From Candidatus Omnitrophota bacterium (lineage in GTDB: Bacteria > Omnitrophota > Gorgyraeia > Zapsychrales > JANLHA01): a DNA stretch of 64,000 nucleotides. Positions 2,502-60,990 of the stretch are shown piece after piece. The position numbers and the translations under genes are program-made. The DNA lies in the NCBI GenBank assembly GCA_020632535.1, contig JACKFJ010000003.1, positions 230,166 through 294,165 on the forward strand. Reading direction: 5' to 3'. The notes under the pieces were generated by a model. That model saw nothing but the letters and a program-made list of their open reading frames with translations, did no database searches and had not been told where the DNA came from. Every line of letters begins with the position of its first letter. The first letter of the stretch is position 1.

Positions 2502-3242
2502 ATGAAATTTAAAAATGAAATCGTTGTTGTAACGGGCGCGACACGCGGCATTGGCAAAGCGATTGCGATGGCTTTCGCAAAACAAGATGCGGAAGTGATC
2601 TTAATTGGCCGTAGTCAAGACGCTTTGAAAGCGCTCTCCGACGAGATAAGGGCATCTGGTCAAGCTTCTGATTTTTTTGCCTGTGACGTCGCTAATGGCG
2701 AAAATGTACAAAAAACCGTTAACATAATTCTTGACAAATATAAGCGCATTGATATATTAATTAACAATGCAGGCATTACCCGTGATAATTTATTGCTCCG
2801 CATGAGTGAAAGTGATTGGGACGATGTCATCAATACCAATCTCAAAGGAGTTTTCAACTTCACCAAAGCCGTTTCTCGGCCCATGCTCAAAGCAAAAAAA
2901 GGCAAAATTATCAGCATTGCCTCGATCATTGGAATAACAGGTAATGCTGGACAGGCAAATTATGCGGCAAGCAAAGCTGGCATCATTGGTTTCACAAAAT
3001 CTGTAGCACGCGAGCTGGCTTCGCGCGGGATTACTGCAAATGCAATCGCGCCCGGATATATTGAAACCGAAATGACCGGTCAGCTTAACGAAGAATTGAA
3101 AGACAAAATTTTAAAAACCATCCCATTAGGACGGTTAGGAACAGTTGAGGACATCGCTAACATAAGTTTATTTCTCGCTTCAAAAGAAGCGGATTATATC
3201 ACGGGTCAAACCATCGTAGTTGACGGTGGTATGGCGATTTAA
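2502..3242 (+). CDS. fabG: 3-oxoacyl-ACP reductase
   Basis: [26 protein letters not shown] motifs; directly upstream of acpP-fabF. Confidence 0.9.
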
Positions 3243-4835: not shown

Positions 4836-4851
4836 ATAAATCTCAGTATAT

Positions 4852-4927
4852 TGTCATCCCCGAATGCTTTTATCGGGGATCCATTTTTCTGATCATGGAT
4901 TCTCTCTAAGAGATTGCGAGAATAACA
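4852..4927 (+). repeat. two-hairpin intergenic palindromic element, family A copy 1 (right half degenerate)
   Basis: TGTCATCCCCGAATGCTTTTATCGGGGATCC...GATTCTCTCTAAGAGATTGCGAGAATAACA; same architecture as copies at 12056, 53476, 58690 and 60991. Confidence 0.75.
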
Positions 4928-4951
4928 ATAGTTATCTAAAAAGGAATACCT

Positions 4952-12049: not shown

Positions 12050-12055
12050 TTTCCT

Positions 12056-12130
12056 TGTCATTCCCGCAATCTCTTAGCGGGCATCCACTTAACAAAAATG
12101 GATCCCCGATTAAAGCATTCGGGGATGACA
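12056..12130 (-). repeat. two-hairpin intergenic palindromic element, family A copy 2 (inverted orientation)
   Basis: TGTCATTCCCGCAATCTCTTAGCGGGCATCC...GGATCCCCGATTAAAGCATTCGGGGATGACA; reverse complement of the arrangement seen at 53476 and 58690. Confidence 0.8.
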
Positions 12131-12146
12131 CAAAAAGGCAATTACT

Positions 12147-15462: not shown

Positions 15463-16794
15463 ATGACAAAAAAACTCTGGGGTGGGCGATTCAGCAAAGG
15501 GACTCATAAACTCGTCGAAGAGTTTACGAATTCGATTCACTTTGACCAAAAGCTGGCTAAGTATGATGTCATCGGTTCGCTCGCGCATATTGATGTTTTG
15601 AAAAAAGCCAAACTTCTCAAAGCTGTAGAATATCAGGCGCTTAAAAAAGCTTTGGAATCAATTTTAAAGACGATCGAAAACGGCACTTTTAAAATTAATC
15701 CGTCGTTTGAAGACATTCATTCCTATATTCAAGAATTGGTAGAAAAAAAAGCGGGTAAGGCGGGGCTAAAACTTCACACATGCCGTTCACGCAATGATCA
15801 AGTTGCTTTTGATGTGAAAGCTTACACGTTAGAAAATCTTTTTATCACGCAAAAGCTCGTTGATGATCTAACAATTACACTTGGCAATCTTGCGAATAAA
15901 AATCGTAATCTTGTAATCCCGGGATTTACACATTTACAGCATGCGATTCCTGTTAGCGTCGTGCAATACTTGAATGCGTACGTTGAAATGCTCAACCGAG
16001 ATCATGTTCGCCTTTATAATGCGGCTGTCAATATTCATTTGACGTTGGGCGCTGGCGCTTTGGCAGGGACGTTTATTCCCGCATTAAACTATAAACAAAA
16101 GAAGAATAAATCATTACTTAAAGATATCGACTCAACCAAGAATTCCTTGGATGCTGTCAGCGACCGCGATTTTATCATTGAAAGCCTTAACGCGCTTGCC
16201 ACAACGAGCATGCATCTTTCGCGTCTGGCGGAGGACATGATCCTCTGGTCGACCAAAGAATTTGATTTTATTGATGTCGACGATGCCTTTTGCACGGGCA
16301 GTTCGCTTATGCCGCAAAAGAAAAATCCCGACGTGCTTGAACTTGTGCGCGGATACACCGGCCGACTATACGGCAATCTCGTCAATGTTTTGACAATGAT
16401 GAAGGGACTGCCGCTTTCGTATAATCGCGACATGCAATTGGACAAAGAGCCTTTGTTTGATTCGTTTGAAATTGTGCAAAAAGAACTTGCGGTTTTAACC
16501 GAACTCTTTAAGAATGTGAAATTTAAGAAAGACAATATCGTCAAGCAACTCGAAGACGAATCACTTTACGCGACGGATATGTCAGATTATCTTGTACAAA
16601 ACGGTGTGACCTTCAAAGACGCGCATAAAATTATCGGACATTTGATCCAGCACAAATTAAAGAATAATGTCGAAATCAAAACCATGACCGACGCAGAATT
16701 AAAGAAATTTCATCCCAAGCTTAATGCGAAAGTTTTAAAAAATATTATTAACCCTAAGACATCTGTTCAGTCAAAAAAATCTATTAAAAAGTAG
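15463..16794 (+). CDS. argH: argininosuccinate lyase
   Basis: 443 aa; fumarate-lyase signature GSSLMPQKKNPD, TSRNDQ-like CRSRNDQV. Confidence 0.92.
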   Translation: MTKKLWGGRFSKGTHKLVEEFTNSIHFDQKLAKYDVIGSLAHIDVLKKAKLLKAVEYQALKKALESILKTIENGTFKINPSFEDIHSYIQELVEKKAGKAGLKLHTCRSRNDQVAFDVKAYTLENLFITQKLVDDLTITLGNLANKNRNLVIPGFTHLQHAIPVSVVQYLNAYVEMLNRDHVRLYNAAVNIHLTLGAGALAGTFIPALNYKQKKNKSLLKDIDSTKNSLDAVSDRDFIIESLNALATTSMHLSRLAEDMILWSTKEFDFIDVDDAFCTGSSLMPQKKNPDVLELVRGYTGRLYGNLVNVLTMMKGLPLSYNRDMQLDKEPLFDSFEIVQKELAVLTELFKNVKFKKDNIVKQLEDESLYATDMSDYLVQNGVTFKDAHKIIGHLIQHKLKNNVEIKTMTDAELKKFHPKLNAKVLKNIINPKTSVQSKKSIKK

Positions 16795-16924
16795 TAGTTC
16801 CGGTTAACCTGCAGCCGGACGTTGCGAGACTCGCTCGCATGGAGTCAGAGCGAGTCGAGCGTCGAACGCCGTCAGCCACGCAGGGGCTGGCAAGTGTTCC
16901 GGCGAAATGATTAACCGGAACTAC
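16794..16924 (+). repeat. GC-rich structured intergenic element, subtype B copy 1
   Basis: Perfect 14-bp terminal inverted repeat GTAGTTCCGGTTAA (16794-16807) / TTAACCGGAACTAC (16911-16924). The interior GCCGGACGTTGCGAGACTCGC...GTTCCGGCG closely matches the copy at 20811. Confidence 0.8.
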
Positions 16925-16945
16925 GAAAAAAGGACTCGAGACGCC

Positions 16946-18202
16946 ATGCACGATTTTAAATTTAAGAATAAAGATTTATACTGCGAAAATGTAAAGGTCA
17001 GCGACGTGGCCAAAGCTGTCGGCACACCATTTTATCTTTACAGCCACAACACACTCGTTGACCATTTGACCAAAATCCAACGCGCCTTTGCCAAGGTCAA
17101 TCCGATCGTCTGTTTTGCCATGAAATCCAACGGCAATTTGAGCGTCCTAAAAACCCTTGCCAATTACGGCGCCGGATTTGACATTGTTTCCATGGGCGAA
17201 TTAAAAAAAGCCCTGCTAATCGGCGCTGACCCAAAGAAAATTGTTTTCGCGTCCGTTGGAAAAACCGAAGACGAAATCGCGATCGCCTTGAAAGCTGGAA
17301 TTCTTTTTTTCAACGTGGAATCCGTTCCCGAACTCGAAGAAATCAATCGCATCGCCAAAAAAATGGGGAAAGTAGCACCCGTTGCTTTGCGCATCAATCC
17401 CGACGTAGCGGCCGCGACACATAATTTCATCACAACTGGAACATTAAAGAATAAATTCGGTATTGATCTAACTTCCACACGCAGACTCTTGAAAGAACAA
17501 AAAAAGTATAAAAACATCAAGATTACTGGTCTGCATATTCATATCGGCTCACAGATCGTGACCGCCAAACCGTTTATCAATGCGATCAAGAAAGTCATAG
17601 AATTTTTAGAAAGCTTGCGTAGCGAAGGAATTCGTATAGAATATTTGGACATCGGCGGCGGCATGGGTATTATTTACAAAGATGAAAACCCACAAACCGC
17701 ACAAAATTATAGCGACGCGATTCTGCCGTATCTTGAAAAAACCGGATTAAAAATTGTAATGGAGCCGGGACGTTTTATCGTTGGGAATGCGGGCATTTTT
17801 GTCACCAAAGTTTTATATTTGAAAGACAATGGCTTTAAAAAATTTCTCATCGTTGACGGCGGAATGAACGATTTGATCCGTCCGTCATTGTACGACGCGT
17901 ATCACGAAATCGTTGCGGTCAAAGCGAGTAAAGCCAAAATAATCAAGGTGGATGTCGTTGGGCCAATTTGCGAAAGCGGCGATTTTCTGGGTAAAGCCCG
18001 CGAATTGCCGGCATTAAAAAAGAACGATCTTTTAGCTGTTCTGAGCGCCGGAGCTTATGGATTTGTGATGTCGAGCAATTATAATGTCCGTTGTCGCGTC
18101 CCGGAAGTTTTAGTCAAAGGCAAAGAATTTGCAGTGACTAAAAAGCGTGAAACATACGACGATTTATTACGGAATGAAACCATTCCGACATTTTTAAAAT
18201 AA
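16946..18202 (+). CDS. lysA: diaminopimelate decarboxylase
   Basis: FAMKSN (PLP lysine), DIGGGMG, CESGD. The track start at 16907 lies inside repeat B1; ATG at 16946, preceded by AAAGGA, is more plausible. Confidence 0.9.
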   Translation: MHDFKFKNKDLYCENVKVSDVAKAVGTPFYLYSHNTLVDHLTKIQRAFAKVNPIVCFAMKSNGNLSVLKTLANYGAGFDIVSMGELKKALLIGADPKKIVFASVGKTEDEIAIALKAGILFFNVESVPELEEINRIAKKMGKVAPVALRINPDVAAATHNFITTGTLKNKFGIDLTSTRRLLKEQKKYKNIKITGLHIHIGSQIVTAKPFINAIKKVIEFLESLRSEGIRIEYLDIGGGMGIIYKDENPQTAQNYSDAILPYLEKTGLKIVMEPGRFIVGNAGIFVTKVLYLKDNGFKKFLIVDGGMNDLIRPSLYDAYHEIVAVKASKAKIIKVDVVGPICESGDFLGKARELPALKKNDLLAVLSAGAYGFVMSSNYNVRCRVPEVLVKGKEFAVTKKRETYDDLLRNETIPTFLK

Positions 18203-18206
18203 AAGT

Positions 18207-18338
18207 AAGGCGGACGAGCGGGAACACTATTCGGCGATTTCCGCAGCCGAGCCGCATACACGTCAGACTTTTGAATTAAGTTTATGCAGCTCGAGCGAGG
18301 ACTGTCTGAGCACAAATAATGTTCCCGCTCTTGCGCCC
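18207..18338 (+). repeat. GC-rich structured intergenic element, subtype C copy 1
   Basis: Outer inverted repeat GAGCGGGAACACTATT (18216-18231) / AATAATGTTCCCGCTC (18315-18330), 15 of 16 bp. Conserved cores CGGCGATTTCCGCAGCC and GCGAGGACTGTCTGAG. Central stem 18249-18258 / 18283-18292. Confidence 0.75.
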
Positions 18339-18344
18339 AATAAT

Positions 18345-19175
18345 ATGAAAAAATCAATTCACTTCACAAAAATGGTCGGCGCGGGCAATGACTTTCTCGT
18401 CATCACGGCAGATAAAAGCCTCGATTACAAAAAGCTGGCGCTCAAGGCTTGCCATCGCACCAACGGCATCGGCGCGGACGGCATTCTTGTGCTTGATAAG
18501 TCAAAAACCGCGGATTACCGCATGCGTATCATTAACGCCGACGGTTCTGAAGCGGAAATGTGTGGCAATGGCGCCCGTTGTATCGCGACATACATTGTCA
18601 ATCGCAAGAAGCCGACGAAAAAACTATTTTCTATCGAAACTTTGGCCGGAACCATTTTAGGAGAAGCCAAAGGAGAAATAGCGCGCGTACGCTTAAGCGA
18701 ACCCACTGATTATCGCCCCAATATTTCGTTGGAACTCAACGGAAAAAAAATTCACGTACACTACATCGACACGGGCGTGCCGCACACGATCGTTTATGTC
18801 AACGGATTAGCGGATATCGATGTCAACAAAATCGGATCCACAATCCGTTATCACAAAGCATTTGCGCCGCGAGGAACTAATGCCAATTTTGTCGAACAGA
18901 TCAATCCAAATTTGGTTTCTGTCCGCACATACGAACGAGGTGTCGAAAGCGAAACCCGTGCCTGCGGAACCGGCAGTGTCGCGGCCGCGATTATTTCCTA
19001 TTTGGAAACCAATCCCGGCACTTTACAGCGCGACCAAAAAAAAGCCACGATGAATGTTTTGACGCAAAGCAGGGAAACACTTGAAGTGACGTTTGACATC
19101 ACCGCCCAAAAAATCACAAACGTCTGGTTAAAGGGCAGTGCCAAATTTATTGCACAAGGCGAATATCTTTCTTAA
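18345..19175 (+). CDS. dapF: diaminopimelate epimerase
   Basis: 276 aa; two catalytic-Cys blocks NADGSEAEMCGNGARC and ETRACGTGSVA. Confidence 0.92.
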   Translation: MKKSIHFTKMVGAGNDFLVITADKSLDYKKLALKACHRTNGIGADGILVLDKSKTADYRMRIINADGSEAEMCGNGARCIATYIVNRKKPTKKLFSIETLAGTILGEAKGEIARVRLSEPTDYRPNISLELNGKKIHVHYIDTGVPHTIVYVNGLADIDVNKIGSTIRYHKAFAPRGTNANFVEQINPNLVSVRTYERGVESETRACGTGSVAAAIISYLETNPGTLQRDQKKATMNVLTQSRETLEVTFDITAQKITNVWLKGSAKFIAQGEYLS

Positions 19176-19199
19176 AATTTTAGGAGGAAATGACAAAAA

Positions 19200-20081
19200 A
19201 TGTTCAAAGGCTCTATCGTCGCGATTGCTACACCGTTTAAGAATGGAAAAGTTGATGAGACGACTTTACGCAATCTTGTTGAATTCCAAATTAAAAGTGG
19301 AACCAACGGAATCGTTCCATGCGGAACTACCGGCGAATCTCCGACGCTTAATAATGAAGAACATGAACATGTCATCGACATTTGCATTCAAACCGCCAAA
19401 GGCCGTATTCCGATTATCGCCGGCACCGGTTCAAATTCCACAGCCGAAGCTGTCGCGTTAACCAAACACGCCGCTAAAATGGGTGCAAGCGGTGTCTTGC
19501 AAGTCAGCCCCTATTACAACAAACCAACACAGGAAGGGCTATATCGCCATTTCAAAGCCGTTTCCGAATGTGCGGACATCCCAATTATCCTTTATAACAT
19601 TGCCGGTCGTACCGCAGTCAACATTGAACCGGCAACCGTCGCACGACTAGCCAATGACTGTAAAAATATTGTTGGTGTCAAAGAAGCTTCCGGTTCCATT
19701 TCCCAAATGCAAATGACAAAATTACTTTGCCCAAAAGATTTCCTACTCCTTTCTGGCGATGACGCGCTTTTGCTACCGATTTTAAGTATCGGTGGAGTCG
19801 GAGTCATTTCGGTCGCGGCTAATATTGTTCCAGCGGATATCTTAAAAATCATTTCCAGTTTTAATTCAGGGAAAATTGACGAAGCCCAAAAGATTCATTA
19901 TAAACTTTTACCACTGTTAAAAGCCTTATTTATTGAAACCAATCCTATTCCAGTTAAAGCGGCGATGGCTTTAATGGGCTTATGCTCGTCAGAAATTCGT
20001 TTGCCTTTGTGCGAAATGTCACAGTCCAATCACGAAGATTTAAAAAAAGCTTTAAATGATTACGGGTTAATAAAAAAGTAA
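19200..20081 (+). CDS. dapA: 4-hydroxy-tetrahydrodipicolinate synthase
   Basis: 293 aa; GTTGES, YNKP, VGVKEASG (Schiff-base Lys). Confidence 0.92.
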   Translation: MFKGSIVAIATPFKNGKVDETTLRNLVEFQIKSGTNGIVPCGTTGESPTLNNEEHEHVIDICIQTAKGRIPIIAGTGSNSTAEAVALTKHAAKMGASGVLQVSPYYNKPTQEGLYRHFKAVSECADIPIILYNIAGRTAVNIEPATVARLANDCKNIVGVKEASGSISQMQMTKLLCPKDFLLLSGDDALLLPILSIGGVGVISVAANIVPADILKIISSFNSGKIDEAQKIHYKLLPLLKALFIETNPIPVKAAMALMGLCSSEIRLPLCEMSQSNHEDLKKALNDYGLIKK

Positions 20082-20091
20082 AAGGATACCT

Positions 20092-20805
20092 ATGATCAAT
20101 CTCGCTGTCAGTGGTTGTCAAGGAAGAATGGGCCAACGCATCACCGCGCTTGCCGCAGCTGATAAAAAAACATTTAAACTCTCCGCACTATTAGAACGCC
20201 CGGGATCTCACGGCAGTGTTGAGGGCATTGCAATTAGCACGTCGAATGACGCATTGAAAGGTTCTGATATTTTGATTGAATTTACCACGCCCGATGCGAC
20301 AATGGCCAATCTCAAAGCCTGCATCAAACACAAAGTCAAGATGGTCATCGGCACGACGGGTTTGACGGACGCGCAAAAAAAAGAAATCAAAAAAGCTTCG
20401 TCAAAGATTGCTATTGTTTTTTCATCCAACATGTCAATCGGTGTAAATGTTTTCTTCAAAGTCGCGGAAATGATTTCCGCAAAAACACCTAACAGTTATG
20501 AAGTGGATATGGTCGAGGCGCATCACATTCATAAAAAAGACGCCCCATCGGGAACCGCCAAGACAATTGCTGAAGTCATTGAAGCCGCTTCAAAAAAGAA
20601 AGTTAAGAATATCGAATCAATACGTGAAGGAGAAATCATCGGTGACCATAAAGTCATTTTTGAAAGTCCCGAAGACACAATTCTCATTTTTCATCACGCA
20701 AAAAATCGCGATATTTTTGTTAAAGGCTCACTCGTCGCTGCGAAATTTTTAAAAGGGAAGACCAAGGGTTTATTTAACATGCAGGATGTTTTAGGACTTC
20801 ATTAA
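20092..20805 (+). CDS. dapB: 4-hydroxy-tetrahydrodipicolinate reductase
   Basis: 237 aa; EAHHIHKKDAPSGTA signature. Confidence 0.9.
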   Translation: MINLAVSGCQGRMGQRITALAAADKKTFKLSALLERPGSHGSVEGIAISTSNDALKGSDILIEFTTPDATMANLKACIKHKVKMVIGTTGLTDAQKKEIKKASSKIAIVFSSNMSIGVNVFFKVAEMISAKTPNSYEVDMVEAHHIHKKDAPSGTAKTIAEVIEAASKKKVKNIESIREGEIIGDHKVIFESPEDTILIFHHAKNRDIFVKGSLVAAKFLKGKTKGLFNMQDVLGLH

Positions 20806-20810
20806 ACCAT

Positions 20811-20938
20811 GTCGGTACAATTGTCTGAAGCCGGACGTTGCGAGACTCGCGCGCTTGGCTTCAGCGCGAGTCTCGCATCGAGCGAAATCCAGCCGCAGGA
20901 GCTGGATGAACGTTCCGGCGCAAGACAATTATACCGAC
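20811..20938 (+). repeat. GC-rich structured intergenic element, subtype B copy 2
   Basis: Outer inverted repeat GTCGGTACAATTGTCT (20811-20826) / AGACAATTATACCGAC (20923-20938), 15 of 16 bp. Perfect internal 13-bp stem GCGAGACTCGCGC (20840-20852) / GCGCGAGTCTCGC (20864-20876). Confidence 0.8.
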
Positions 20939-20954
20939 AACCAAAGAGGATAAT

Positions 20955-22133
20955 ATGACCGTGGATACCGCATTCAATATTGAATTTTCTGACCGTCTTA
21001 AAGAATTACCTCCTTATCTTTTCGTCGAGATCGACAAAGCCAAACGGCAAGCCCGCGCGGAAGGCCGCGATATTATTGACTTAGGCGTCGGCGATCCTGA
21101 CACCCCAACATTGCCACATATTATTGAAGCCATGAAAAAATCCATCACGGATCCAGCAAATCACCGCTATGCTTTTGATGCTGGATTGCCTTTGCTTCGC
21201 ACAGAAATCGCGCTCTGGTTTAAAAACCGTTTCGGAGTTGAACTCAATCCTGACAATGAAATTTATCCTTTGATTGGTTCCAAAGAAGGTCTCGCGCATT
21301 TGCCTCTGGGAATTATCAATCCAAACGACAAAGTCATTTTGACCGACCCAGCCTATCCCGCATATCGCGCGTCTATTGCTTTTGCCGGCGGCAAAATCAT
21401 CAATTTACCGCTTAAAGAAGGCAATGGGTTTTTGCCCGATCTTAAAAAATTAGCGGAGATCAAAGATGCCAAAGCCATGTACGTGAATTATCCCAATAAT
21501 CCTACGTCCGCGACTGCCACTATTGAGTTTTATAAAGAACTCGTTGCGATCGCCCGCGAAAAAGGAATTATCCTCATTTCGGACATGGCGTATTCCGAAA
21601 TTTATTTCGACGGCGTCAAGCCACCTAGCATTTTGGAAATTGAAGGCGCCAAAGATATTGCGATTGAATTTCATTCATTTTCAAAAACTTACAACATGAC
21701 GGGCTGGCGAATCGGCTGGGCTTGCGGTAATCCAAAATTAATTGCCGCATTAGCTAAGGTCAAATCCAATTTTGATTCTGGAATTTTTCAAGCCATTCAG
21801 GTCGCTGGTATCACGGCTTTACGAACAAAACCTGAAGAACTCGATGATCTGCGCCGTATGTATGAAGAACGCCGCGATCTTTTAATCAATGGTTTGCGCA
21901 GTCTCGGCTGGAAAGTCCCTCCGCCCAAAGCCGCTTTTTATATTTGGGCGCGTTTGCCAAAGGGTTTTGACACATCGATGGAAACAGCAGCTGCCTTTTT
22001 GGAGAAAGCCAATCTCGTCGTCACGCCGGGAGTTGGTTTTGGTCCAGCAGGCGAAGGTTTTGTTCGTATGACCATCACAATGCCTTCAGAACGTTTAACC
22101 GAAGCTGTTGAACGATTGAAGAAAATTTTATAG
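20955..22133 (+). CDS. dapL: class I/II aminotransferase, probable LL-diaminopimelate aminotransferase
   Basis: 392 aa; LPPYLFVEIDKAK N-terminal block, SFSKTYNMTGWRIGW (PLP lysine). Sits directly after dapF-dapA-dapB, and no dapD/dapC/dapE is seen in the window. Confidence 0.6.
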   Translation: MTVDTAFNIEFSDRLKELPPYLFVEIDKAKRQARAEGRDIIDLGVGDPDTPTLPHIIEAMKKSITDPANHRYAFDAGLPLLRTEIALWFKNRFGVELNPDNEIYPLIGSKEGLAHLPLGIINPNDKVILTDPAYPAYRASIAFAGGKIINLPLKEGNGFLPDLKKLAEIKDAKAMYVNYPNNPTSATATIEFYKELVAIAREKGIILISDMAYSEIYFDGVKPPSILEIEGAKDIAIEFHSFSKTYNMTGWRIGWACGNPKLIAALAKVKSNFDSGIFQAIQVAGITALRTKPEELDDLRRMYEERRDLLINGLRSLGWKVPPPKAAFYIWARLPKGFDTSMETAAAFLEKANLVVTPGVGFGPAGEGFVRMTITMPSERLTEAVERLKKIL

Positions 22134-22139
22134 TTTACA

Positions 22140-22263
22140 GGCGGTTTAGGATTGCCCTTCGGCGAGTTCCGCAGCCAAGTCGCCTTCCTGAATGTCTTTT
22201 AAAATAGATAAAGCGACTTGTGCGAGGACTGTTCGAGTCCAAGAAGGGCAATCCTAAAGCGCC
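22140..22263 (+). repeat. GC-rich structured intergenic element, subtype C copy 2
   Basis: 20-bp outer inverted repeat GGCGGTTTAGGATTGCCCTT (22140-22159) / AAGGGCAATCCTAAAGCGCC (22244-22263), 19 of 20 bp. Cores CGGCGAGTTCCGCAGCC and GCGAGGACTGTTCGAG. Central stem CAAGTCGC (22176-22183) / GCGACTTG (22213-22220). Confidence 0.8.
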
Positions 22264-22276
22264 TTTAATCATAACA

Positions 22277-22690
22277 ATGCCAACTGTTTATTTAGCTTAC
22301 GGATCAAACATGGGCAACCGCCCTAGAAATATTGCTGAGGCGATTGCCTTGCTAAATAAAGCAAAAATTAATGTAACTGCTGTTTCGAAGGCAATTGAAA
22401 CCAAACCTATTGGCGGTGTACCGCAAGCCAATTATCTCAACGGTGCCTTAAAAGCAACCACTCGACTTTCCCCAATGCAGCTCTTACAACAAACCAAAAT
22501 CATCGAACAAAAAATGGGGCGTATCAAAAGTCTTAAAAATGGTCCGCGTCCTATCGACTTAGACATTCTTCTTTACGACAACATCAAAATCAAAAATAAA
22601 AACTTGCGAATCCCACATCCGGAAATTTTTAAACGCAGTTTTGTTTTCAATCCACTTAAAGAAATCGCGCCAGAAATCTTTAAAAAGTAG
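22277..22690 (+). CDS. folK: 2-amino-4-hydroxy-6-hydroxymethyldihydropteridine diphosphokinase (HPPK)
   Basis: YLAYGSNMGN, RPIDLDILLY, IPHPE motifs. The track start (GTG at 22220) lies inside repeat C2; ATG at 22277 is preferred. Confidence 0.85.
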   Translation: MPTVYLAYGSNMGNRPRNIAEAIALLNKAKINVTAVSKAIETKPIGGVPQANYLNGALKATTRLSPMQLLQQTKIIEQKMGRIKSLKNGPRPIDLDILLYDNIKIKNKNLRIPHPEIFKRSFVFNPLKEIAPEIFKK

Positions 22691-31742: not shown

Positions 31743-31990
31743 TCCAAATTGATTTTGCCTGGACCATAACATTTTTAATTTCTCTCATACCATTGCTTGT
31801 ATTGTGGTTATGGATATTCTATACTACTGATTGTAGTCAAACAGAAAACGAATCATCTGATTTGGAGCAATGTCCGTTTTGCACATATTTATTTTTCAAA
31901 TTCACAATCAAAACATTTGTCATTTGTCCTCGTTGCAAAAGTCTTATTAATGCAGACGAAAATGTTAAGACAAATCCGGAGATAACATGA
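31739..31990 (+). CDS. small membrane protein with C-terminal four-Cys zinc-ribbon
   Basis: 83 aa; TM segment WTITFLISLIPLLVLWLWIFY, then CPFC-x17-CPRC; ATGA overlaps on both sides. Confidence 0.5.
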   Translation: MIQIDFAWTITFLISLIPLLVLWLWIFYTTDCSQTENESSDLEQCPFCTYLFFKFTIKTFVICPRCKSLINADENVKTNPEIT

Positions 31991-32322
31991 AGAAAATAAA
32001 TTCTTTAAAAAATGATAGTGGCATAATTCTCGTTACAGTTGTTATTTTGGTTCTCGTTTTATCGATTGTTGCCATTGGTGTTATGGGTCTTAACGTAAGT
32101 CAAGTCAAAACTGCATCATCCGTTGTCGACACCATTAAAGCGGAGCAATTAGCCACTGGGCTTCTTTTTCAAGATCATCAGCGTAAAATTGATGGTACTG
32201 GGACAACTCCCACTTCAATTACAATCGGTTCCACAACTTATGCCATCAACCGCAGCGAAACAGCAGGGAGTGGCGCGACGCCCAACAACGCGAACCAGAT
32301 CCAGTTTAATATTTCGTATTAA
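31987..32322 (+). CDS. PilX-N-like minor pilus/pseudopilus component
   Basis: 111 aa. N-terminus SGIILVTVVILVLVLSIVAIGVMGLN resembles the PilX N-terminal segment (no G/FTLxE cleavage motif). Thr/Ser/Gly-rich C-terminus. Confidence 0.45.
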   Translation: MKKINSLKNDSGIILVTVVILVLVLSIVAIGVMGLNVSQVKTASSVVDTIKAEQLATGLLFQDHQRKIDGTGTTPTSITIGSTTYAINRSETAGSGATPNNANQIQFNISY

Positions 32323-32471
32323 TGTCATTCCCTTCATAAAATCATCCGAATATTTTTGATAATTAACTTTATTTCAAAGAACATCTCCCTTATAATGAAA
32401 TCCAATTGATCACGTCTGTTGCTTCACAACAGATTAAACATGTACTATTACCCTAGTGATAACACTATAAA

Positions 32472-34016
32472 ATGTTTTTCTCGAAATCATCGACTGAAAA
32501 AAGCCAGCTAGGCATCTACTGGGGCAAAGACGCTTTTTGTTTTGTTGAAAGCAAAAAAGGTCAGCCTGATAAAATTGCCTATGTTAATTTTGATACACCA
32601 ATCGCAGGAGATCAGGGACAAAAAATCCCCGAAGGGCTGCGCTTAACTGCTTTAATTCAGCAAGTTATCCGTGAAAAGAAATTCACCTGCAAAAAAATAA
32701 ATCTTTCCCTCTCCGTTAAGGATGTCATTTATCGTTCATTCGTCATTCCCTTCATGCAGCCGGCAGAAGTCAAAAGCGTTGTTGACTTTGAAGCGACAAA
32801 ATACATTCCGATCAAACTGGAAGATTTAGCTTACACATTTCATGCAATCCCTTTTAGCGAAGGAGATCAGAAAAACTTACGTATTTTGTTTGTCGCGACA
32901 CGCAAAAATAGCGTTGAACGATACACCAACATTCTACAACAATCTGGATTAGAAACTGAATTCATTGAACCCGCATCGGTCAGCTTAATTCGCATTTTAC
33001 AAAAACAAGGACATATCCCCAAACAACAGGCTACTGGTATCATCGAAATCGAAAATGAAGGCGGTCGAATCACCGTAACAGATAAAGATGTCATTCAATT
33101 CGTCAGAGAGTTTCAATCGTCAATTGAAGGTACCGGACTTCCGGCAGAAAACGCAAAATTCTTCAATGACATTCATGTCGCTTTTAATTTTTATCAAAGA
33201 CAAAATCCGCAAGGAAAATTAGATCGCATTCTCACGTTATCAACAAATGATCTTAGCCCACTTGCAGCTGGATTAAGTCAGGAGTTTAAAGTCCCTGCAA
33301 CATCTTTAACCGTCGCAAAAATTCTTAAAACGGAGCAAATCAGCGACTCAGGGATGTTGAGTGCCGCCGGAGCGGCGATCCGCGAAAAGGCATCGACCAG
33401 TAAAAATTTTGATTTGACGACCAAAATCAAAACTAATAAAACTGGACTTGAAAGCAGCGGTGTTTTTGCAAATTGGAATTTAAAACTATTAGGTATTTGT
33501 GTTGGAGCTTCGATCGCTTTAATTTATTTAACGTCGTTGTGGTCGACAAGCTCAATTGCAGATGCCAAAAAACGTTCTGCAAATTTATCAAAAAAACTCG
33601 GTATTTATGAATCGTCTCCAAAAGAAAAAATTACCGAACTTAAGGACGGTGTTGTTAGTAAGCTCAATCAATATCAAGATGTTCGCACAAAAAGTAATAT
33701 CACATACTATTTAAAGAAAATCCCAAAGATGTTGCCACCTGGCGCATGGCTTAACAATTTTAATATTGAATATTACGAAGGGGCCGAGACCCAGGATGGT
33801 ATTCTTAGACGTGTTTCAAACGTAGCGCTTTCGATGGATGGCTATATTTATCTACCCACGTCTAATGAGCAACTTCGCCAAATCAATACTATGGTCGCAA
33901 AGATGAAAAATGACAAAGAACTATCAAAACTTTTTAAAGAAATCGTTTTAGCAAATGTTAAACAGGAAAATTTCAATAATTATTCTGTAACCAATTTCAG
34001 GATCGGCTGCAAATAG
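32472..34016 (+). CDS. PilM-PilN fusion (GspL/MshI-like) inner-membrane assembly protein
   Basis: 514 aa. N-terminal ~320 aa with a PilM/actin-like pattern (LGIYWGKDAFCFVE..., FEATKYIPI). Single TM segment LLGICVGASIALIYLTSLW. ~150-aa periplasmic domain. Confidence 0.6.
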   Translation: MFFSKSSTEKSQLGIYWGKDAFCFVESKKGQPDKIAYVNFDTPIAGDQGQKIPEGLRLTALIQQVIREKKFTCKKINLSLSVKDVIYRSFVIPFMQPAEVKSVVDFEATKYIPIKLEDLAYTFHAIPFSEGDQKNLRILFVATRKNSVERYTNILQQSGLETEFIEPASVSLIRILQKQGHIPKQQATGIIEIENEGGRITVTDKDVIQFVREFQSSIEGTGLPAENAKFFNDIHVAFNFYQRQNPQGKLDRILTLSTNDLSPLAAGLSQEFKVPATSLTVAKILKTEQISDSGMLSAAGAAIREKASTSKNFDLTTKIKTNKTGLESSGVFANWNLKLLGICVGASIALIYLTSLWSTSSIADAKKRSANLSKKLGIYESSPKEKITELKDGVVSKLNQYQDVRTKSNITYYLKKIPKMLPPGAWLNNFNIEYYEGAETQDGILRRVSNVALSMDGYIYLPTSNEQLRQINTMVAKMKNDKELSKLFKEIVLANVKQENFNNYSVTNFRIGCK

Positions 34017-34019
34017 AAT

Positions 34020-34667
34020 ATGCCTCCGCAACCACCCAAAAAAATCACGAGTCTGCATCAAATTGATATTTCCAAATTGGATGTCAAGGATCTGCAGAAT
34101 ATTGATTTTCAAAAAATCCTGAAAGATGCGCGTCAACGTCCAGACACGGCTATTGCTTTTGCTGTTCCAATACTCGCTCTTTTCATATGCTTCAATATAT
34201 TTACAAAATCACAAAATGAGAGAAGAATTGTTACAACTAAAATCAAGGAAATGGAAGCCAAAGTCAAATTGGTCGATGAATACAATACCGCTCAGGAAGA
34301 ATTTCAAACATTTTTGGATACCATGCCAGCAAAAATTACGGAAGATGAATTTATTACTAAAATTACCGATTTTGCTGTGAAGAACCACGTGCAGATCGAA
34401 TCATTCTCTCCAGCTCAAAACAAGAGCGATCCCATTTACGATTTAAAATTAATTAACTTGACTGCAAACGCCCAAGATTTCAATGATATGGGACATTTTA
34501 TTCAAGATATTGAAAATTCCGGTTTATCGATTCGAATCAATAGCTGGAATGGCAATATGGGGCCGCAAGCACAAGGCGGAGCACGCCGCGCAATCGATCC
34601 CAATAATCCAAACGGACTCGTCATTAATTTTCGTCTCGAAGTCGCCTCAGTGACATTTAAACAATGA
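34020..34667 (+). CDS. PilO/GspM/MshJ-like bitopic assembly protein
   Basis: 215 aa; cytoplasmic N-terminus, TM segment AIAFAVPILALFICFNIFT, coiled-coil segment, periplasmic ferredoxin-like-sized domain; position between PilMN and the secretin. Confidence 0.5.
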   Translation: MPPQPPKKITSLHQIDISKLDVKDLQNIDFQKILKDARQRPDTAIAFAVPILALFICFNIFTKSQNERRIVTTKIKEMEAKVKLVDEYNTAQEEFQTFLDTMPAKITEDEFITKITDFAVKNHVQIESFSPAQNKSDPIYDLKLINLTANAQDFNDMGHFIQDIENSGLSIRINSWNGNMGPQAQGGARRAIDPNNPNGLVINFRLEVASVTFKQ

Positions 34668-35221
34668 AAAAATTATTCATAACAACCGCCTTTACCTTTT
34701 TGCTTCTAAACCCGCTTTTGGTTTATGCTCAAAATATTTCGCAATCACCCATTACACAATTAAAATCAATCATTCAAACACCGCCACCGGACCCATTACA
34801 AACTACCCTTGAGAAAATCAACCAAAATAAAAATCAAAAAAATTCAAGAACTGACGACGATTCTGAAGAAGAAACACAAATAGAGATATTTATCAATCCC
34901 TTTGTTCCACAGATTCCAAAAGATATTAAGCCAGTCGCGGTGAACCCGCAAAACGACAACCAAAATTTGCAAACTCAACCAGTTCCCGTTATCCCTACGC
35001 CACAATTTATTGTTTCCGGATTAATTTGGAACAGTAAAAAACCAGCCGCGATTATGAACGGTCAAGTCGTAGCGATTGGTGATCAGGTAAGCAACTGGGC
35101 TATTTCTGAAATCACAAAAGATGGTGTTCGCGTCTCATATGAAGACCGCAGTTTATGGATTAAACCCATTGTAGATCCCATGAGCCAGCCGCAACAGGCA
35201 ACTCCGGGAAGACGATTTTGA
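34664..35221 (+). CDS. PilP/GspB(T2SSB)/MshK-like periplasmic secretin-associated protein
   Basis: 185 aa. Signal peptide, Pro/Gln/Asn-rich linker, C-terminal block FIVSGLIWNSKKPAAIMNGQVVAIGDQVSNWAISEITKDGVRVSYEDRSLWI typical of PilP/GspB-type domains. Confidence 0.55.
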   Translation: MKKLFITTAFTFLLLNPLLVYAQNISQSPITQLKSIIQTPPPDPLQTTLEKINQNKNQKNSRTDDDSEEETQIEIFINPFVPQIPKDIKPVAVNPQNDNQNLQTQPVPVIPTPQFIVSGLIWNSKKPAAIMNGQVVAIGDQVSNWAISEITKDGVRVSYEDRSLWIKPIVDPMSQPQQATPGRRF

Positions 35222-35250
35222 ACAGTACAAGACAGGACAAAGGAGTCATT

Positions 35251-36789
35251 ATGTTGAAAAAAAATCTTATCATATTATTTCTAGGATGCACAATACTTTA
35301 CAGTACGAACATAGCGATCGCTGCTGATATTGATATCGACACTTCAAGCTCATTTCTTTATCCTGGATTCTCGAAAAAAATATCCATGGATTTTCAAGAC
35401 GCGTCTTTAGTCGATGTCTTAAAAATATTTTCACAGCAGACAAGTATTAATCTCATATCGTCAGAAGAGATCGCTGGAAAGCGTGTTACCGTATATCTTG
35501 ACAATGTTCCAGTCGAACAAGCCCTTGAACAAGTTTTACGGGCCAACAGCTTGACATATGAATTACAACCCGATAGTAATATCTACATTGTCAAACCCCT
35601 CGCAAAACCCGAAATTGAACTCTTAACCCGTGTTTATCTACTCAAACATGCCAGCGTCAGTACGGCACGCATCGGTAAAACCTTAAAAATTGTTTATACC
35701 GTTGATCAAGGTACTACACAGGAAGTAACCGAAAGCACCAAAGGCGGATCTTCTGGTGGTTCATCTGGAGCAGGCGGAGAAGGAAGTCCTGGTATAATGA
35801 GCGCACTTAAGGGAGTTATTACGGCCAAAGGCACTATCGTTGAAGATAGCCGGACAAACAGTCTGACGATTACCGATATCGCGAGCAATTTTAAAAACAT
35901 TGAAACCGCCTTAGCAAAACTCGACACACCCGTTCCGCAAGTTTTAATTGAAGTCGAAATGCTTGAAGTTTCAAAAGAGGTGGGAGATAAAATCGGTGTC
36001 AAATTTGGCGAAACACCACTAACGTTTAATGGCGGAACGCGCGCTGTACTTTACCCCTGGAATCAGAATAAAATTCTACAAAAAGGTTTTGAATTTGAAG
36101 AGGAGTGGACAGCAGGGACGCTCAGTGCCACGGGGATGACCGCTATCCTACAATTTCTTCAAACACAAAGCGATACCAAAAATTTAGCTAGACCACGAAT
36201 TTTAACACTTAACAATCAGCCAGCACAAATTAAAATTGCAACACAGGAAGCTATTGGTTTAACAGAAAGTACGACATCATCACAAAATTTAGCAACAGCA
36301 ACGAGTTCCGCGGAGCGTGTTGAAACCGGCGTTTTCTTAACCGTCACACCACAGGTCGACATCGTTAATAATGAGATTACCATGGCCGTCGTTCCGAAAG
36401 TCATCACGACCACACCCAGCTCAATTACGACGGGTGGTGTTACCCTCAAAGATCCCGAAGAAAGAGGTTCATTGTCAATTTTGCGCGTAGCCAGCGGTGA
36501 TACAGTTGCACTTGGCGGTTTACTACGTGAAGATCACACAACCGTCGTTACTAAAATACCTTTTCTTGGCGATATTCCCTTTATTGGATCGGCATTCCGT
36601 CATAAAACCGAAAACCTTGAGAATCGTGAATTAATCATCTTTTTAACACCGCATATTCTTGAAGATGGATTACAAAAGAATGCCCAAACACCAAAGCGTC
36701 CGATTTTTCGTGAGCAGACTGAACCTTCCCAAAACCGCTTAGAAACTGTCGAACGCGAATTGTCAAACACTCAAAGAAAAAAATTATAA
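35251..36789 (+). CDS. secretin (PilQ/GspD/MshL family)
   Basis: N0/STN-like block MDFQDASLVDVLKIFSQQTSINL. C-terminal secretin signature GDTVALGGLLRED..TKIPFLGDIPFIGSAFRHK....RELIIFLTPHIL. ATG at 35251 preceded by AAGGAG (the track start at 35218 is TTG). Gly/Ser-rich insert at 35737-35793. Confidence 0.9.
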   Translation: MLKKNLIILFLGCTILYSTNIAIAADIDIDTSSSFLYPGFSKKISMDFQDASLVDVLKIFSQQTSINLISSEEIAGKRVTVYLDNVPVEQALEQVLRANSLTYELQPDSNIYIVKPLAKPEIELLTRVYLLKHASVSTARIGKTLKIVYTVDQGTTQEVTESTKGGSSGGSSGAGGEGSPGIMSALKGVITAKGTIVEDSRTNSLTITDIASNFKNIETALAKLDTPVPQVLIEVEMLEVSKEVGDKIGVKFGETPLTFNGGTRAVLYPWNQNKILQKGFEFEEEWTAGTLSATGMTAILQFLQTQSDTKNLARPRILTLNNQPAQIKIATQEAIGLTESTTSSQNLATATSSAERVETGVFLTVTPQVDIVNNEITMAVVPKVITTTPSSITTGGVTLKDPEERGSLSILRVASGDTVALGGLLREDHTTVVTKIPFLGDIPFIGSAFRHKTENLENRELIIFLTPHILEDGLQKNAQTPKRPIFREQTEPSQNRLETVERELSNTQRKKL

Positions 36790-36790
36790 A

Positions 36791-38503
36791 ATGGCGCATT
36801 TAAAGTTAGGTGAAATTCTGCTTCAGCAAGGATTGCTCAATGAAGAGCAGCTGCGCGAAGCCATACAAGTCCAAAAAAGAGATTCTGGACGTATCGGAGA
36901 AATTCTCATTAAATTGGGTTTTCTCACGGAAGAAGATATTGTTGCGGCATTGGGAAGTCAATTGAATATTCCTCATGCTAGTAGCCAAAACAATCTGCTC
37001 AAACCCCGCGTCGATCAAAATTTAGATAAAATTCTTCCATACGACTTTGCGAAAACAAATCTTGCCTTACCACTAAGCAAGGAAGACAACAAACTCACAT
37101 GCGCGGTTGATGATCCGCTTGACTTGCTAATGCTTGATAATTTGCGAATGGTCACAGGGTGCGAAGTGTCGTTAGTCCTTGCTACCCGTTCCGATCTCAT
37201 GGCTGCCATTCAAGATTTTTATACTTTAGCGCGATCCAATGCAGGGACACCTATGGCGCTGCCATCGGACAATATCGAAGGAGAAACACCTGTTCCTGCA
37301 GATCCTAAAGTTGGCCTCAAAGATAATAATTTGGATGACATGATTGAAAAAGCTGAAGAACCTCCTGTTATTAAACTTGTTGATTTGATTATCCGCCAAG
37401 CGATTGAACAGCGCGGCAGTGATATTCACATCGAATCCTATAAGGATAAAATTAATTTACGATACCGTATTGACGGTATCCTCTATCAAATTCCACCACC
37501 AGCCCGACATCTTTTATTACCAATTGTTTCTCGTCTTAAAATTCTTGCCAAACTCGATATTGCTGAAAAACGTTTGCCACAAGACGGATCCATTGCTTTT
37601 AAAATAGGTGAGAGGACTGTTGATTTGCGTATTTCAACTGTTCCGACAGTATGGGGCGAAAAAGTTGTTATGCGTATTTTAGATAAATCCGCGGTACCTC
37701 TACGTCTAGAAAATTTAGGTTTTAATGAAGTTCAGTTGGAACGCATCCGCAAAGCTCTCAAAAGACCATATGGCCTATTTTTCGTTACCGGTCCAACGGG
37801 AAGTGGAAAATCAACAACACTTTATTCCGCACTCAGTGAAGTCATGGATCCACGCAAAAATATCGTTACCGCTGAAGACCCGGTAGAATTCAAACTTGAC
37901 GGGATAAATCAGGTCGCAGTACGTCCTGACATCGGCTTAACATTTGCTTCTGTTCTGCGTGCTTTTTTACGTCAAGATCCTGATATCATCATGGTTGGTG
38001 AGGTTCGTGATCTTGAAACCGCACAAATCTGCGTTCGTGCGGCTTTAACAGGACACTTTGTTTTAAGTACCCTTCATACAAATGACGCATCCGCCGCCAT
38101 TACGCGTCTCTTGGATATCGGGATTGAATCATACCTTTTAACACCGTCGCTTTCGATGGTATTAGCACAGCGCTTGGCGCGCAGACTTTGCTCAAAATGC
38201 AAAGAGCCAATGGAACCAAATCCTGATCTTTTGGGTGGGCTTAAATTTAACAGCGACCTTATTTACAAAGCCGCGGGCTGTGATGAATGCAATCATACTG
38301 GCTACCGCGGCCGACTTGTTATTACGGAGGCCATGGTCATTGATGATAATTTGCGCGAACTTATGACCAAAAAGGCCGGCTATTCTGAAATTCTTGATGC
38401 CGCTCGCAAGGGTGGCATGGATACATTATTTGAAGACGGAATTAAAAAAGTCGAAGCAGGATTAACCAGTCTTGATGAAATTTTAAGTGTAACCGCACTT
38501 TAA
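36791..38503 (+). CDS. GspE/PilB/MshE-family secretion ATPase with MshEN-type N-terminal domain
   Basis: 570 aa; Walker A GPTGSGKSTT, Asp/His boxes, tetracysteine CSKC...CDEC; N-terminal tandem 24-residue MshEN motifs (residues 5-28 and 34-57). Confidence 0.92.
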   Translation: MAHLKLGEILLQQGLLNEEQLREAIQVQKRDSGRIGEILIKLGFLTEEDIVAALGSQLNIPHASSQNNLLKPRVDQNLDKILPYDFAKTNLALPLSKEDNKLTCAVDDPLDLLMLDNLRMVTGCEVSLVLATRSDLMAAIQDFYTLARSNAGTPMALPSDNIEGETPVPADPKVGLKDNNLDDMIEKAEEPPVIKLVDLIIRQAIEQRGSDIHIESYKDKINLRYRIDGILYQIPPPARHLLLPIVSRLKILAKLDIAEKRLPQDGSIAFKIGERTVDLRISTVPTVWGEKVVMRILDKSAVPLRLENLGFNEVQLERIRKALKRPYGLFFVTGPTGSGKSTTLYSALSEVMDPRKNIVTAEDPVEFKLDGINQVAVRPDIGLTFASVLRAFLRQDPDIIMVGEVRDLETAQICVRAALTGHFVLSTLHTNDASAAITRLLDIGIESYLLTPSLSMVLAQRLARRLCSKCKEPMEPNPDLLGGLKFNSDLIYKAAGCDECNHTGYRGRLVITEAMVIDDNLRELMTKKAGYSEILDAARKGGMDTLFEDGIKKVEAGLTSLDEILSVTAL

Positions 38504-38529
38504 ACAAATTTTTTAAGGAGTTTCCGCAC

Positions 38530-39777
38530 GTGCCACGTTTTCATTATGTTGCCAAAGATTCAAACGGAAAAAATATAACTGAAGAAACTGAAGCTTTTGA
38601 TAAAGCAAGCCTCATTCAATCACTTCAACAAAAAGGATACTTCATTCTCTCTGTTGAAGAGCAAGCCGCTACCTCAACACACATCGCAACAACAGAAGAA
38701 AGTACCAAAAAATTTACCCACTCGGGTATCAAGTTACTGGACATGCTCAACTTTGCCAATCAATTGGCAACAATGCTTGATTCCGGAATTACCATTTTAC
38801 GCGCACTGGAAGTTATTGTTGATCAGGTCGAAAGTAAAAACTTTTATGCGATTTTGCAGAAAGTTAATGCAGATGTTGAGCAAGGTAGTTCACTGAGCGA
38901 AGCCTTATCACGTTTTCCTAAAGTTTTTGACCAGTTGTGGGTCAGTCTTATCGAAGTCGGGGAAGCTTCCGGAACAATGCCAATGGTTCTTAAAAAACTG
39001 GCTTTTTATCTCGAACAAAAAGCCGCCTTTCGCGCAACCGTCACGTCGGCTGTTATGTATCCAGCTGTTCTTTTTGTCGTCTGTCTCGGCGCCATCGCCT
39101 TTTTCGCATTATTTATCGGCCCGCGTTTTGAAAGTATTTTTAACACAATGAACGTTGAATTGCCTTTGATTACCAAAGTCCTGCTTTCAACATTCCGTTT
39201 CATTAAAGAAAAATTTTTAATGCTAGTCATGAGTGTTGTCATTGGTATTTTCCTATTCCGCAAATACAGTAAAACGCCTATGGGCCGCGCGCATGTCGAA
39301 CAATTCCTATTTGGTTTGCCCGTTATCGGCAATATTGCCAAACTCATTGTTATCGAAAGATTTACTTCACAAATGTCCATTTTAGTCGACAGCGGGGTTC
39401 CTATTCTCTATGCTTTAGATATTACACAAAGGCTTGTAGATAATTCCATTTGCGCGGGCGTTATCAATGATATTAAAGAAAGTGTCCGACAGGGCGAATT
39501 GCTCGTCGCACCCATGCAACGCAGCAAATTTTTCCCTTCGATGTGTATTCAAATGATTTCCGTCGGCGAAGAAACCGGTGAATTGAGTAAAATGCTTACG
39601 CACGTTGCGACATATTATCAACAAACTGTCGAAACTTTTATGAAACGCCTTGGAACGCTCATTGAACCATTCATGCTTGTATTTATGGGGGGCGTTATTG
39701 GCGTCATTGTTCTTGCCATGTTCCTTCCCATGTTTAATATTGCGCAATTAGGTGGGGCAGGAGGGGCAAGACATTAA
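38530..39777 (+). CDS. GspF/PilC/MshG-family platform protein
   Basis: 415 aa; N-terminus PRFHYVAKDSNGK, duplicated T2SSF-type blocks (LSEALSRFPKVFD..., GEETGELSKML); GTG start preceded by AAGGAG. Confidence 0.9.
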   Translation: MPRFHYVAKDSNGKNITEETEAFDKASLIQSLQQKGYFILSVEEQAATSTHIATTEESTKKFTHSGIKLLDMLNFANQLATMLDSGITILRALEVIVDQVESKNFYAILQKVNADVEQGSSLSEALSRFPKVFDQLWVSLIEVGEASGTMPMVLKKLAFYLEQKAAFRATVTSAVMYPAVLFVVCLGAIAFFALFIGPRFESIFNTMNVELPLITKVLLSTFRFIKEKFLMLVMSVVIGIFLFRKYSKTPMGRAHVEQFLFGLPVIGNIAKLIVIERFTSQMSILVDSGVPILYALDITQRLVDNSICAGVINDIKESVRQGELLVAPMQRSKFFPSMCIQMISVGEETGELSKMLTHVATYYQQTVETFMKRLGTLIEPFMLVFMGGVIGVIVLAMFLPMFNIAQLGGAGGARH

Positions 39778-53436: not shown

Positions 53437-53475
53437 TCCCCTACGAATTTGGCGAGCATAGCAATTTCAGTATTA

Positions 53476-58685: not shown

Positions 58686-58689
58686 TAAT

Positions 58690-58763: not shown

Positions 58764-58773
58764 GACCAACTAT

Positions 58774-60986: not shown

Positions 60987-60990
60987 CGCA

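Follow-up and report, generated by a model that had tools for sequence, protein, structure and literature searches.

Mobile hairpins with freely varying stems and a nearly invariant asymmetric core form a widespread and apparently undescribed family

What kind of element keeps its unpaired bases and lets its stems vary? The question is raised by three GC-rich intergenic elements, here termed type C, in a 64,000-nt stretch of DNA from a Candidatus Omnitrophota bacterium (the window; coordinates are 1-based within it). A first-pass annotation had placed them in the lysA|dapF, dapL|folK and GT-C|recA spacers and interpreted them as a selected RNA or DNA secondary structure with a conserved interior. 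Our searches recovered all three copies at the same sites and on the same (plus) strand. The evidence on which of the two nucleic acids is selected leans towards a mobile element that would be read as folded single-stranded DNA. Our results show that the elements belong to a family that spans many phyla, inserts in tiny spacers just 3' of stop codons and persists unchanged in place, with stems that are held complementary while two asymmetric loops remain nearly invariant. [quoted passage not shown]

Copy 1 folds into a single hairpin (18209-18337) that fills the 142-nt lysA|dapF spacer (18203-18344), and copy 2 (22139-22264; z-scores of -8.8 as RNA and -9.1 as DNA) fills the 144-nt dapL|folK spacer (22134-22277). 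Both sit inside an operon. The first-pass annotation had expected all copies to be transcribed within mRNAs. Copy 3 (50143-50265), however, is not part of an operon; the GT-C/TPR gene ends before it with its stop codon (50127), and the recA promoter follows it, a perfect sigma-70 consensus (TTGACA-17 nt-TATAAT, 50288-50316). The 14-nt consensus of the first shared block, core 1 (GCGAKTTCCGYAGC), is matched with 0 mismatches at 18234-18247 (GCGATTTCCGCAGC), 22162-22175 (GCGAGTTCCGCAGC) and 50170-50183 (GCGAGTTCCGTAGC, a GTAG variant). The 16-nt consensus of core 2 (GYGAGGACTGTYYGAG) is found at 18295-18310 (part of GCGAGGACTGTCTGAGC, 18295-18311), 22222-22237 (GCGAGGACTGTTCGAG) and 50221-50236 (GTGAGGACTGTTCGAG), with 0, 0 and 1 mismatch, respectively, to a search pattern that starts with GC; the two C-to-T changes of copy 3 would both create G-U wobbles in a proposed helix, P2, discussed below. 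In an alignment of the three copies, these common blocks flank and enclose unrelated stems that nevertheless pair with themselves. The inner stem-loop, P3, has the arms CGAGCCGCATA (18248-18258) and TATGCAGCTCG (18283-18293), with one C.A mismatch, in copy 1 (18248-18293); CAAGTCGC (22176-22183) and GCGACTTG (22213-22220) in copy 2 (22176-22220); and CTGAGCTTACC (50186-50196) and GGAAGCTCAG (50208-50217), also written CTGAGCTT(A)CC/GGAAGCTCAG, in copy 3 (50186-50217). The outer stems pair as well. They are not uniformly unrelated, as had been proposed, since those of copies 1 and 2 both start with AGGCGG and end with GCGCC; the hairpin bases read either GGCGG.../...GCGCC or TTTTCAAC.../...GTTGAAAA.

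A two-block search of both strands, allowing up to 2 and 3 mismatches, revealed no further type C copies in the window. We infer that chance cannot account for 14-16-mers that match exactly or nearly so and are paired at a fixed spacing three times in 64 kb, a point on which the looser three-mismatch control search is uninformative. Each copy in its entirety forms one extended hairpin, with z-scores that range from -5.8 to -8.8 for RNA and from -4.4 to -9.1 for DNA. On either strand, 0 of 200 shuffled sequences reached the same stability, and the two strands of each element fold about equally well, also as DNA. With a G+C content of 47-51%, compared to 41.7% for the window and about 30-35% for ordinary spacers, they indeed form GC-rich islands in AT-rich surroundings.

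Across the family, the layout comprises a free P1 arm, core 1 in the form (G)CGAG-TTCCGCAGC, a free P3 palindrome, core 2 in the form GC-GAGGACTGT-YYGAGC and the second P1 arm. Public genomes were scanned with the pattern TTCCGYAGC-N30-60-GAGGACTGT, whose 18 required bases are invariant by construction, and the family counts rest on at least 120 matching loci (L001-L120), with at least about 100 non-identical genuine copies among the matches listed. In these roughly 100 copies, conservation extends beyond the pattern to an AG before TTCC, a GY before GAGG, a YYGAGC at the end and complementary flanks. Invariant internal loops combined with free but pairing stems are found far outside the window, and the cores, whose restriction to the three initial copies had been named beforehand as a ground for abandoning the idea, recur about 100 times in many phyla. 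The hosts include many Adlercreutzia and other Eggerthellaceae, Myxococcota/Polyangia, Bdellovibrionota (with a variant form), Omnitrophota, Gemmatimonadota, Latescibacterota, Krumholzibacteriia, 'Eisenbacteria', Phycisphaerales and other Actinobacteria, and type C cores are present in at least ten bacterial phyla. The density of copies reaches three in the 64-kb window and up to three per 8-kb locus, with many loci per genome in Adlercreutzia and in a deltaproteobacterial metagenome-assembled genome (MAG), and whole hairpins measure between 60 and 256 nt, with a median of 118 nt. When mismatches were tolerated, the fetched loci (0.92 Mb) yielded 118 core pairs, 101 of them with an exact AGTTCCGCAGC, along with a handful of decayed copies.

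Among 2.9 million viral contigs, the pattern matched 46 times, and none of the 46 matches had extended cores or flanking stems. These matches thus represent the chance background of the pattern, and the element is not phage-borne. Rfam 15 contained no type C match at the gathering threshold for the whole window, nor did permissive scans (E up to 10) of the window part 16700-22400, eight diverse loci and two isolated elements return anything except generic miRNA-hairpin noise. When full-text literature was searched for the core strings, spelled in DNA or RNA letters, only unrelated primers were retrieved, and a keyword search of the MITE and REP literature found no description that fits the element. 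The type C family is thus a widespread mobile hairpin with an invariant asymmetric core that is apparently undescribed.

Several lineages show additional regularities. In Eggerthellaceae (L004, L010, L011, L017, L033, L038, L053, L085, L111 and others), conserved tails lie outside the hairpin, (A/T)RGRWWGAGC(N0-5), GCGTAGA or AAGTAG on the left and GGACAG or GACC on the right, and these tails travel with the element where its orientation differs between species. Within some genomes, arms are common to many copies, as in the deltaproteobacterial MAG, Gemmatimonadota and Adlercreutzia subfamilies. In the deltaproteobacterial MAG MFD06435 (L003, L007, L028, L035, L076, L114), the element forms part of a larger repeat, about 500 bp long, which is composed of several non-coding modules in varying order and orientation, reminiscent of a bacterial interspersed mosaic element (BIME); given this composition, we rejected the idea that the larger repeat is an insertion sequence (IS). 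A translated motif, ...SEDCLS..., recurs in the spurious open reading frames (ORFs) made by the element.

The central proposition, that the stems are selected to pair rather than for their sequence, was evaluated in a register-anchored alignment (A2) of 41 non-redundant copies, in which the stem register was chosen for each sequence individually, a procedure that favours pairing. Both partners have changed in every one of the 18 P1 and P3 pairs tested, and 89% of the cells are paired, compared to 37-51% when the partners are slid against each other. The covariation score amounts to 0.765 versus 0.166 in shuffled alignments, with 0 of 500 shuffles reaching the observed value. The choice of register falls far short of accounting for so wide a gap to the controls, and the compensatory changes anticipated by the first-pass annotation are thus borne out. 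The situation differs for P2, the helix proposed to form between AGUUCCGC and GCG-A-GGACU. In the model, it is paired in 99% of cases and never varies on both sides, such that its pairing is neither supported nor refuted. Copy 3, L013 and L023 show the few natural changes in this helix, C-to-U transitions that would give G-U wobbles on the strand running from core 1 to core 2. Beside P1, the junction commonly reads either GCGAG or GCGCAG, and the register of pairing with YUGAGC differs between the two. When modelled as a kink-turn, the GCGAG variant could form tandem G.A pairs with YUGAGC, without the 3-nt bulge; since the two variants need different registers, this model is ambiguous.

P3 comprises 630 Watson-Crick pairs, two G.T pairs and six A.C pairs, and 90% of the positions in distal P1 are Watson-Crick. 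Typical structured RNAs contain far more wobble pairs than seen in P1 and P3, and the type C stems resemble palindromes in DNA more than the helices of a drifting RNA. The counts in distal P1 are 91 G.T versus 25 A.C overall, 24 versus 12 outside the Eggerthellaceae and 67 versus 13 inside this family, where the excess is inflated by shared ancestry. This imbalance is a modest sign that the fold of the core 1-to-core 2 strand is what matters. In two cases, a complete element takes the place of the P3 of another one (L113, reverse, about 2840-3110; L016, reverse, about 2150-2400), and the inner copy then has a minimal P3, GGCGAAGCC or AGCGAAGC, that resembles the very stable GCGAAGC DNA mini-hairpin.

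Comparison with close relatives indicates that the elements move. In relatives with 88-91% LysA identity, the lysA|dapF spacer is 1 nt long (TAA-T/A-ATG; L167, L170, L172, L176), and the dapL|folK spacer measures 3 nt in L167-L172, with the order of the arg-lys genes being identical in the window and the relatives. The 142- and 144-nt spacers of the window therefore represent whole insertions directly 3' of stop codons, and copies 1 and 2 probably split translationally coupled gene pairs. Copy 3 is found at the orthologous site in L173, the nearest relative identified (with a GT-C protein 90% identical), and is absent from the more distant L175. The family had been called the opposite of a typical MITE, which holds for its conserved interior and fails as a sign of immobility, given that all three window copies are insertions absent from relatives. 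Similarly, an Adlercreutzia/Eggerthellaceae site is filled in two species (L063, L039) and empty, with a 9-nt spacer, in a third (L047). Among six orthologous filled sites, three carry the element in opposite orientation, with a different P3 or distal P1, and a comparison of L017+1142 with L109+5100 shows that P1 can be kept while P3 is swapped. As spacers are tiny in compact genomes, the repeated use of a site may reflect where insertion is tolerated rather than targeting. We also considered that the outer stem could be a pre-existing terminator or an inverted copy of the target, and rejected this idea because the empty sites contain neither a hairpin nor any similarity to the arms. The relatives carry inserts of their own, two tandem units of about 80 nt in argH|lysA of L167 (4836-5000) and, in dapF|dapA of L172 (7090-7177) and L176 (7590-7678), an inserted hairpin of roughly 65 nt, none of which is present in the window; each lineage has its own set of intercistronic insertions in the arg-lys operon.

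Once in place, the element can be retained with high fidelity. Copy 3 and its counterpart in L173 agree at 113 of 119 positions (95%) and, for the two cores and P3 including both stem and loop, at 66 of 67 positions (98.5%), with P3 itself identical. By comparison, the third codon positions of the flanking genes are only 67.5% and 72.5% identical, and the rest of the recA upstream region shows 92% identity; the long recA 5' leader that follows the promoter is conserved to the same 92%. A dead selfish repeat would not be kept so far above the level of third codon positions, and the comparison of the two sequences points to strong purifying selection on copy 3. The spacers occupied across the family are mostly co-directional or convergent, with only four divergent cases among 71 oriented ones. 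The notion that the copies are transcribed within mRNAs is true of the window only and does not extend to the family, as elements elsewhere lie in sense orientation in 26 cases and antisense in 45 and flip at orthologous sites.

Taken together, mobility, persistence under selection, stems that need only pair, conserved strand-specific unpaired bases, indifference to the direction of transcription and the scarcity of G-U pairs lead us to favour a REP-like element that would be read as a folded single strand, most likely of DNA. Folded single-stranded DNA is read by TnpA-REP, IS200/IS605 transposases, integron integrases and relaxases, and the substrates of the REP/TnpA-REP system are folded single-stranded hairpins that carry a guide, GTAG, on the 5' side as well as CT cleavage sites, and whose conserved unpaired bases are needed for activity (PMC8266576). 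By analogy, the asymmetric loops, the G(C/T)AG before P3 and the CT within GGACTGT may serve as determinants for strand-specific recognition and cleavage by a trans-acting enzyme encoded elsewhere, either of the HUH/Y1 type (TnpA-REP, also known as REP-associated tyrosine transposase or RAYT, or IS200/IS605-like) or functionally similar. Every copy indeed has CCG(C/T)AG-C before P3, although GTAG occurs only in copy 3 and L173, and GCAG is not GTAG. GGACTGT is invariant after P3 and includes a CT, at which cleavage is putative. If stems need only pair, master copies could drift through compensating changes, and with identical cores, copies could exchange P3 by gene conversion. Retention may come from effects on the host, for example if transcripts gain a hairpin at their 3' end or genes are insulated from one another.

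The likeness to REP, BIME and REPIN sequences includes high copy number, an extragenic location at gene 3' ends and inside operons, and the occurrence in both orientations, sometimes as adjacent inverted pairs (L010, L019). In format, it extends to a G(T/C)AG located just 5' of a perfect palindrome with a 3-5-nt loop and a CT on its 3' side, and further likenesses are the putative recognition of the hairpin as a folded strand via unpaired features and long persistence within lineages. However, what REPs conserve is the stem sequence, which is normally specific to a species or genus, whereas type C stems vary freely and invariance across phyla is confined to two asymmetric loops of about 14-17 nt. 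Moreover, the REP-like unit is nested within a second, longer and variable stem, and no RAYT gene was found in the window or the 0.92 Mb of loci. Correia/NEMIS, ERIC/IRU, RUP and BOX elements are comparable in that they are 100-150 nt long, non-coding, polymorphic for insertion and intergenic or intercistronic and form long hairpins, but they have conserved ends, defined target duplications, near-identical copies and narrow host ranges, whereas the type C ends vary and the interior is constant.

A number of observations weigh against the favoured reading. The species-specific conserved stems that define REPs are absent, and a core of about 30 nt that is unchanged across more than ten phyla has no counterpart among the described REPs and IS ends and is closer in appearance to the core of a ribozyme or riboswitch. 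The apparent purifying selection on copy 3 would not be expected of a purely selfish repeat. At the junction of copy 1, a target duplication of 0-5 bp can be read, with A, TA, TAA and AATAA all fitting depending on the relative taken as ancestral, and copy 2 is ambiguous as well. The core 1-to-core 2 strand coincides with the locally C-rich strand at 64 loci, compared to 28 loci with the opposite arrangement, and this bias holds within both orientation classes, with local GC skew being only a proxy for replication direction that is confounded with gene orientation. The active strand of IS200/IS605 elements is reported to lie on the lagging-strand template, and the skew bias observed here is opposite. 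In addition, a tblastn search with an IS200 TnpA query detected no IS200-like TnpA in the window or the 0.92 Mb of fetched loci, and a Pfam analysis of the 30 window proteins that were not annotated through relatives revealed no transposase, HUH or integrase domains, with these proteins, like the rest of the window, having housekeeping, pilus or secretion functions only. No gene for such an enzyme lies between inverted pairs of elements, the intervening genes being recG, an RNA methyltransferase gene and rpmE (L31). There is a fair, though less than even, chance that the invariant bubble is the working part of an undescribed class of elements, either a catalytic or protein-recruiting RNA carried on a mobile hairpin or the substrate of an undiscovered single-strand-specific DNA transposase or recombinase that is conserved across more than ten phyla and accepts any stem that pairs. 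If so, the type B elements in the same operon (see below) would constitute a sister class of the same design.

The main rival explanation is a structured RNA whose loops and P2 would form a functional motif, such as a protein-binding handle, a processing or stability element in 3' untranslated or intercistronic regions or a new self-cleaving ribozyme, with the DNA spreading as a mobile module. Some 30 nearly invariant nucleotides held across phyla by covarying stems are the classic signature of such an RNA. Also in its favour are copy 3, in sense orientation in a 3' untranslated region and with its apparent selection including P3 and its loop, the excess of G.T over A.C on the core 1-to-core 2 strand, the C-to-U core changes in copy 3, L013 and L023 that would maintain P2 through G-U wobbles, and the possible tandem G.A pairs in the loops; furthermore, the type B elements resemble Rfam Actinomyces-1, an RNA motif with a proven kink-turn. 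We nevertheless regard this explanation as less likely than the REP-like reading, because the cores are kept throughout in copies that lie antisense more often than sense and flip at orthologous sites, G-U accounts for only 0.3% of the P3 and about 2-7% of the P1 pairs, P2 never varies on both sides, and isolated elements lack any Rfam match even at E = 10. Furthermore, a terminator scan returned neither a T-tract nor a terminator call for the three window elements. The missing T-tract also speaks against a hairpin selected by the host as an insulator, mRNA 3'-end protector or nucleoid-protein site, with incidental mobility. Such a role would suit the location just 3' of stop codons and between operon genes, the fact that copy 3, which lies just upstream of the promoter of recA, is conserved in place, and the persistence at orthologous Eggerthellaceae sites; yet a generic hairpin needs no 30 invariant unpaired bases, and close relatives lack copies 1 and 2 altogether, which makes this view improbable.

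An ordinary MITE appears equally hard to reconcile with the data. In that case, P1 would correspond to the terminal inverted repeats of an internally deleted IS (e.g., an IS630-like or IS5-like element with TA or TAA duplication) and the cores to subterminal remnants of the parent. The elements are small, non-coding and polymorphic for presence between close relatives, the copy 1 junction is compatible with a TA, TAA or AATAA duplication, copies 1 and 2 share AGGCGG...GCGCC termini, and some genomes contain many copies with common arms. However, the ends differ across the family, even among the Omnitrophota copies (L070, L081, L102, L103 and copy 3), whereas the interior is conserved, and a relic would vary from phylum to phylum and between orthologous sites. 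Within the 0.92 Mb of loci, there was also no autonomous parent, i.e., no core pair 0.13-4 kb apart around an ORF (core 1...ORF...core 2) and no parent with a solitary core. As for the attC sites of integrons or another cassette system, there are parallels: structure and a few unpaired bases would carry the function, recognition would involve folded single-stranded DNA, the terminal stem-loop is variable, the stems are free in sequence, and the sites lie between co-directional genes, with B and C elements alternating in the arg-lys cluster. Still, there are no R/L boxes (RYYYAAC/GTTRRRY) at the hairpin base, no cassette array and no integrase in the window, and integrons are not known from Actinobacteria, where the type C family is abundant. 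Above all, the flanking core metabolic genes are syntenic in relatives without the element, which effectively refutes this idea and leaves it with a very small residual probability.

The window contains two further GC-rich hairpins, termed type B (16795-16945 and 20806-20954), which follow the type C design in that the outer stem varies whereas the core it encloses is conserved (GCCGGACGTTGCGAGACTCGC...CATCGAGCG...CAGCC-CGCAGG-GCTGG...GTTCCGGCG). Both are absent from close relatives and thus represent recent insertions, too. The segment 20824-20926 aligns with the full Actinomyces-1 model (RF02928), including the closing stem GCCGGA...UCCGGC and two hairpins, but its score of 25.1 bits lies below the gathering score of 39.1, so that it is not a member by the Rfam criterion, and type C shows no similarity to this model. 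The relatives and P0001 (whose LysA is 100% identical) place the lysA start at ATG 16946 (ATGCACGATTTTAAA), whereas the longest ORF starts within the outer stem of the type B element (16907-16945); the neighbouring element is therefore longer than the ORF list implies. The possibility that B and C are the two ends of one unit was rejected, because type B is absent from foreign type C loci and the intervening genes are syntenic in relatives. A third interspersed family, which occupies several other spacers, is built on short palindromes of the TGTCATCCCCGAA...ATCGGGGATCC type (4836-4951, 12050-12146, 53437-53491, 58686-58773 and 60987-61055). In addition, a c-di-GMP-I riboswitch (41655-41738, plus strand; 56.1 bits, gathering score 35) is located upstream of a small pilin-like ORF (41919-42341) and preceded by a type IV pilus/type II secretion gene cluster (31987-39777).

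Collectively, our findings describe a repeat whose logic is reversed compared to that of the usual interspersed palindromes, which conserve their stem or ends and are confined to one species or genus each. Here, about 30 unpaired bases are fixed from Coriobacteriia to Omnitrophota and Myxococcota, and the pairing parts are free, which suggests the existence of a conserved cellular reader of the folded strand. Within core operons, members of the family come between gene pairs that are probably translationally coupled, and they create spurious ORFs. Owing to its absence from Rfam, the element will keep being flagged as a candidate riboswitch or small RNA in screens that plot the GC content of intergenic regions against their length. 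With copy 3 conserved like a regulatory site and copies 1 and 2 being recent arrivals, type C elements may be selfish, domesticated or both, and they open the question of what mobilises and maintains REP-like DNA outside the Proteobacteria.

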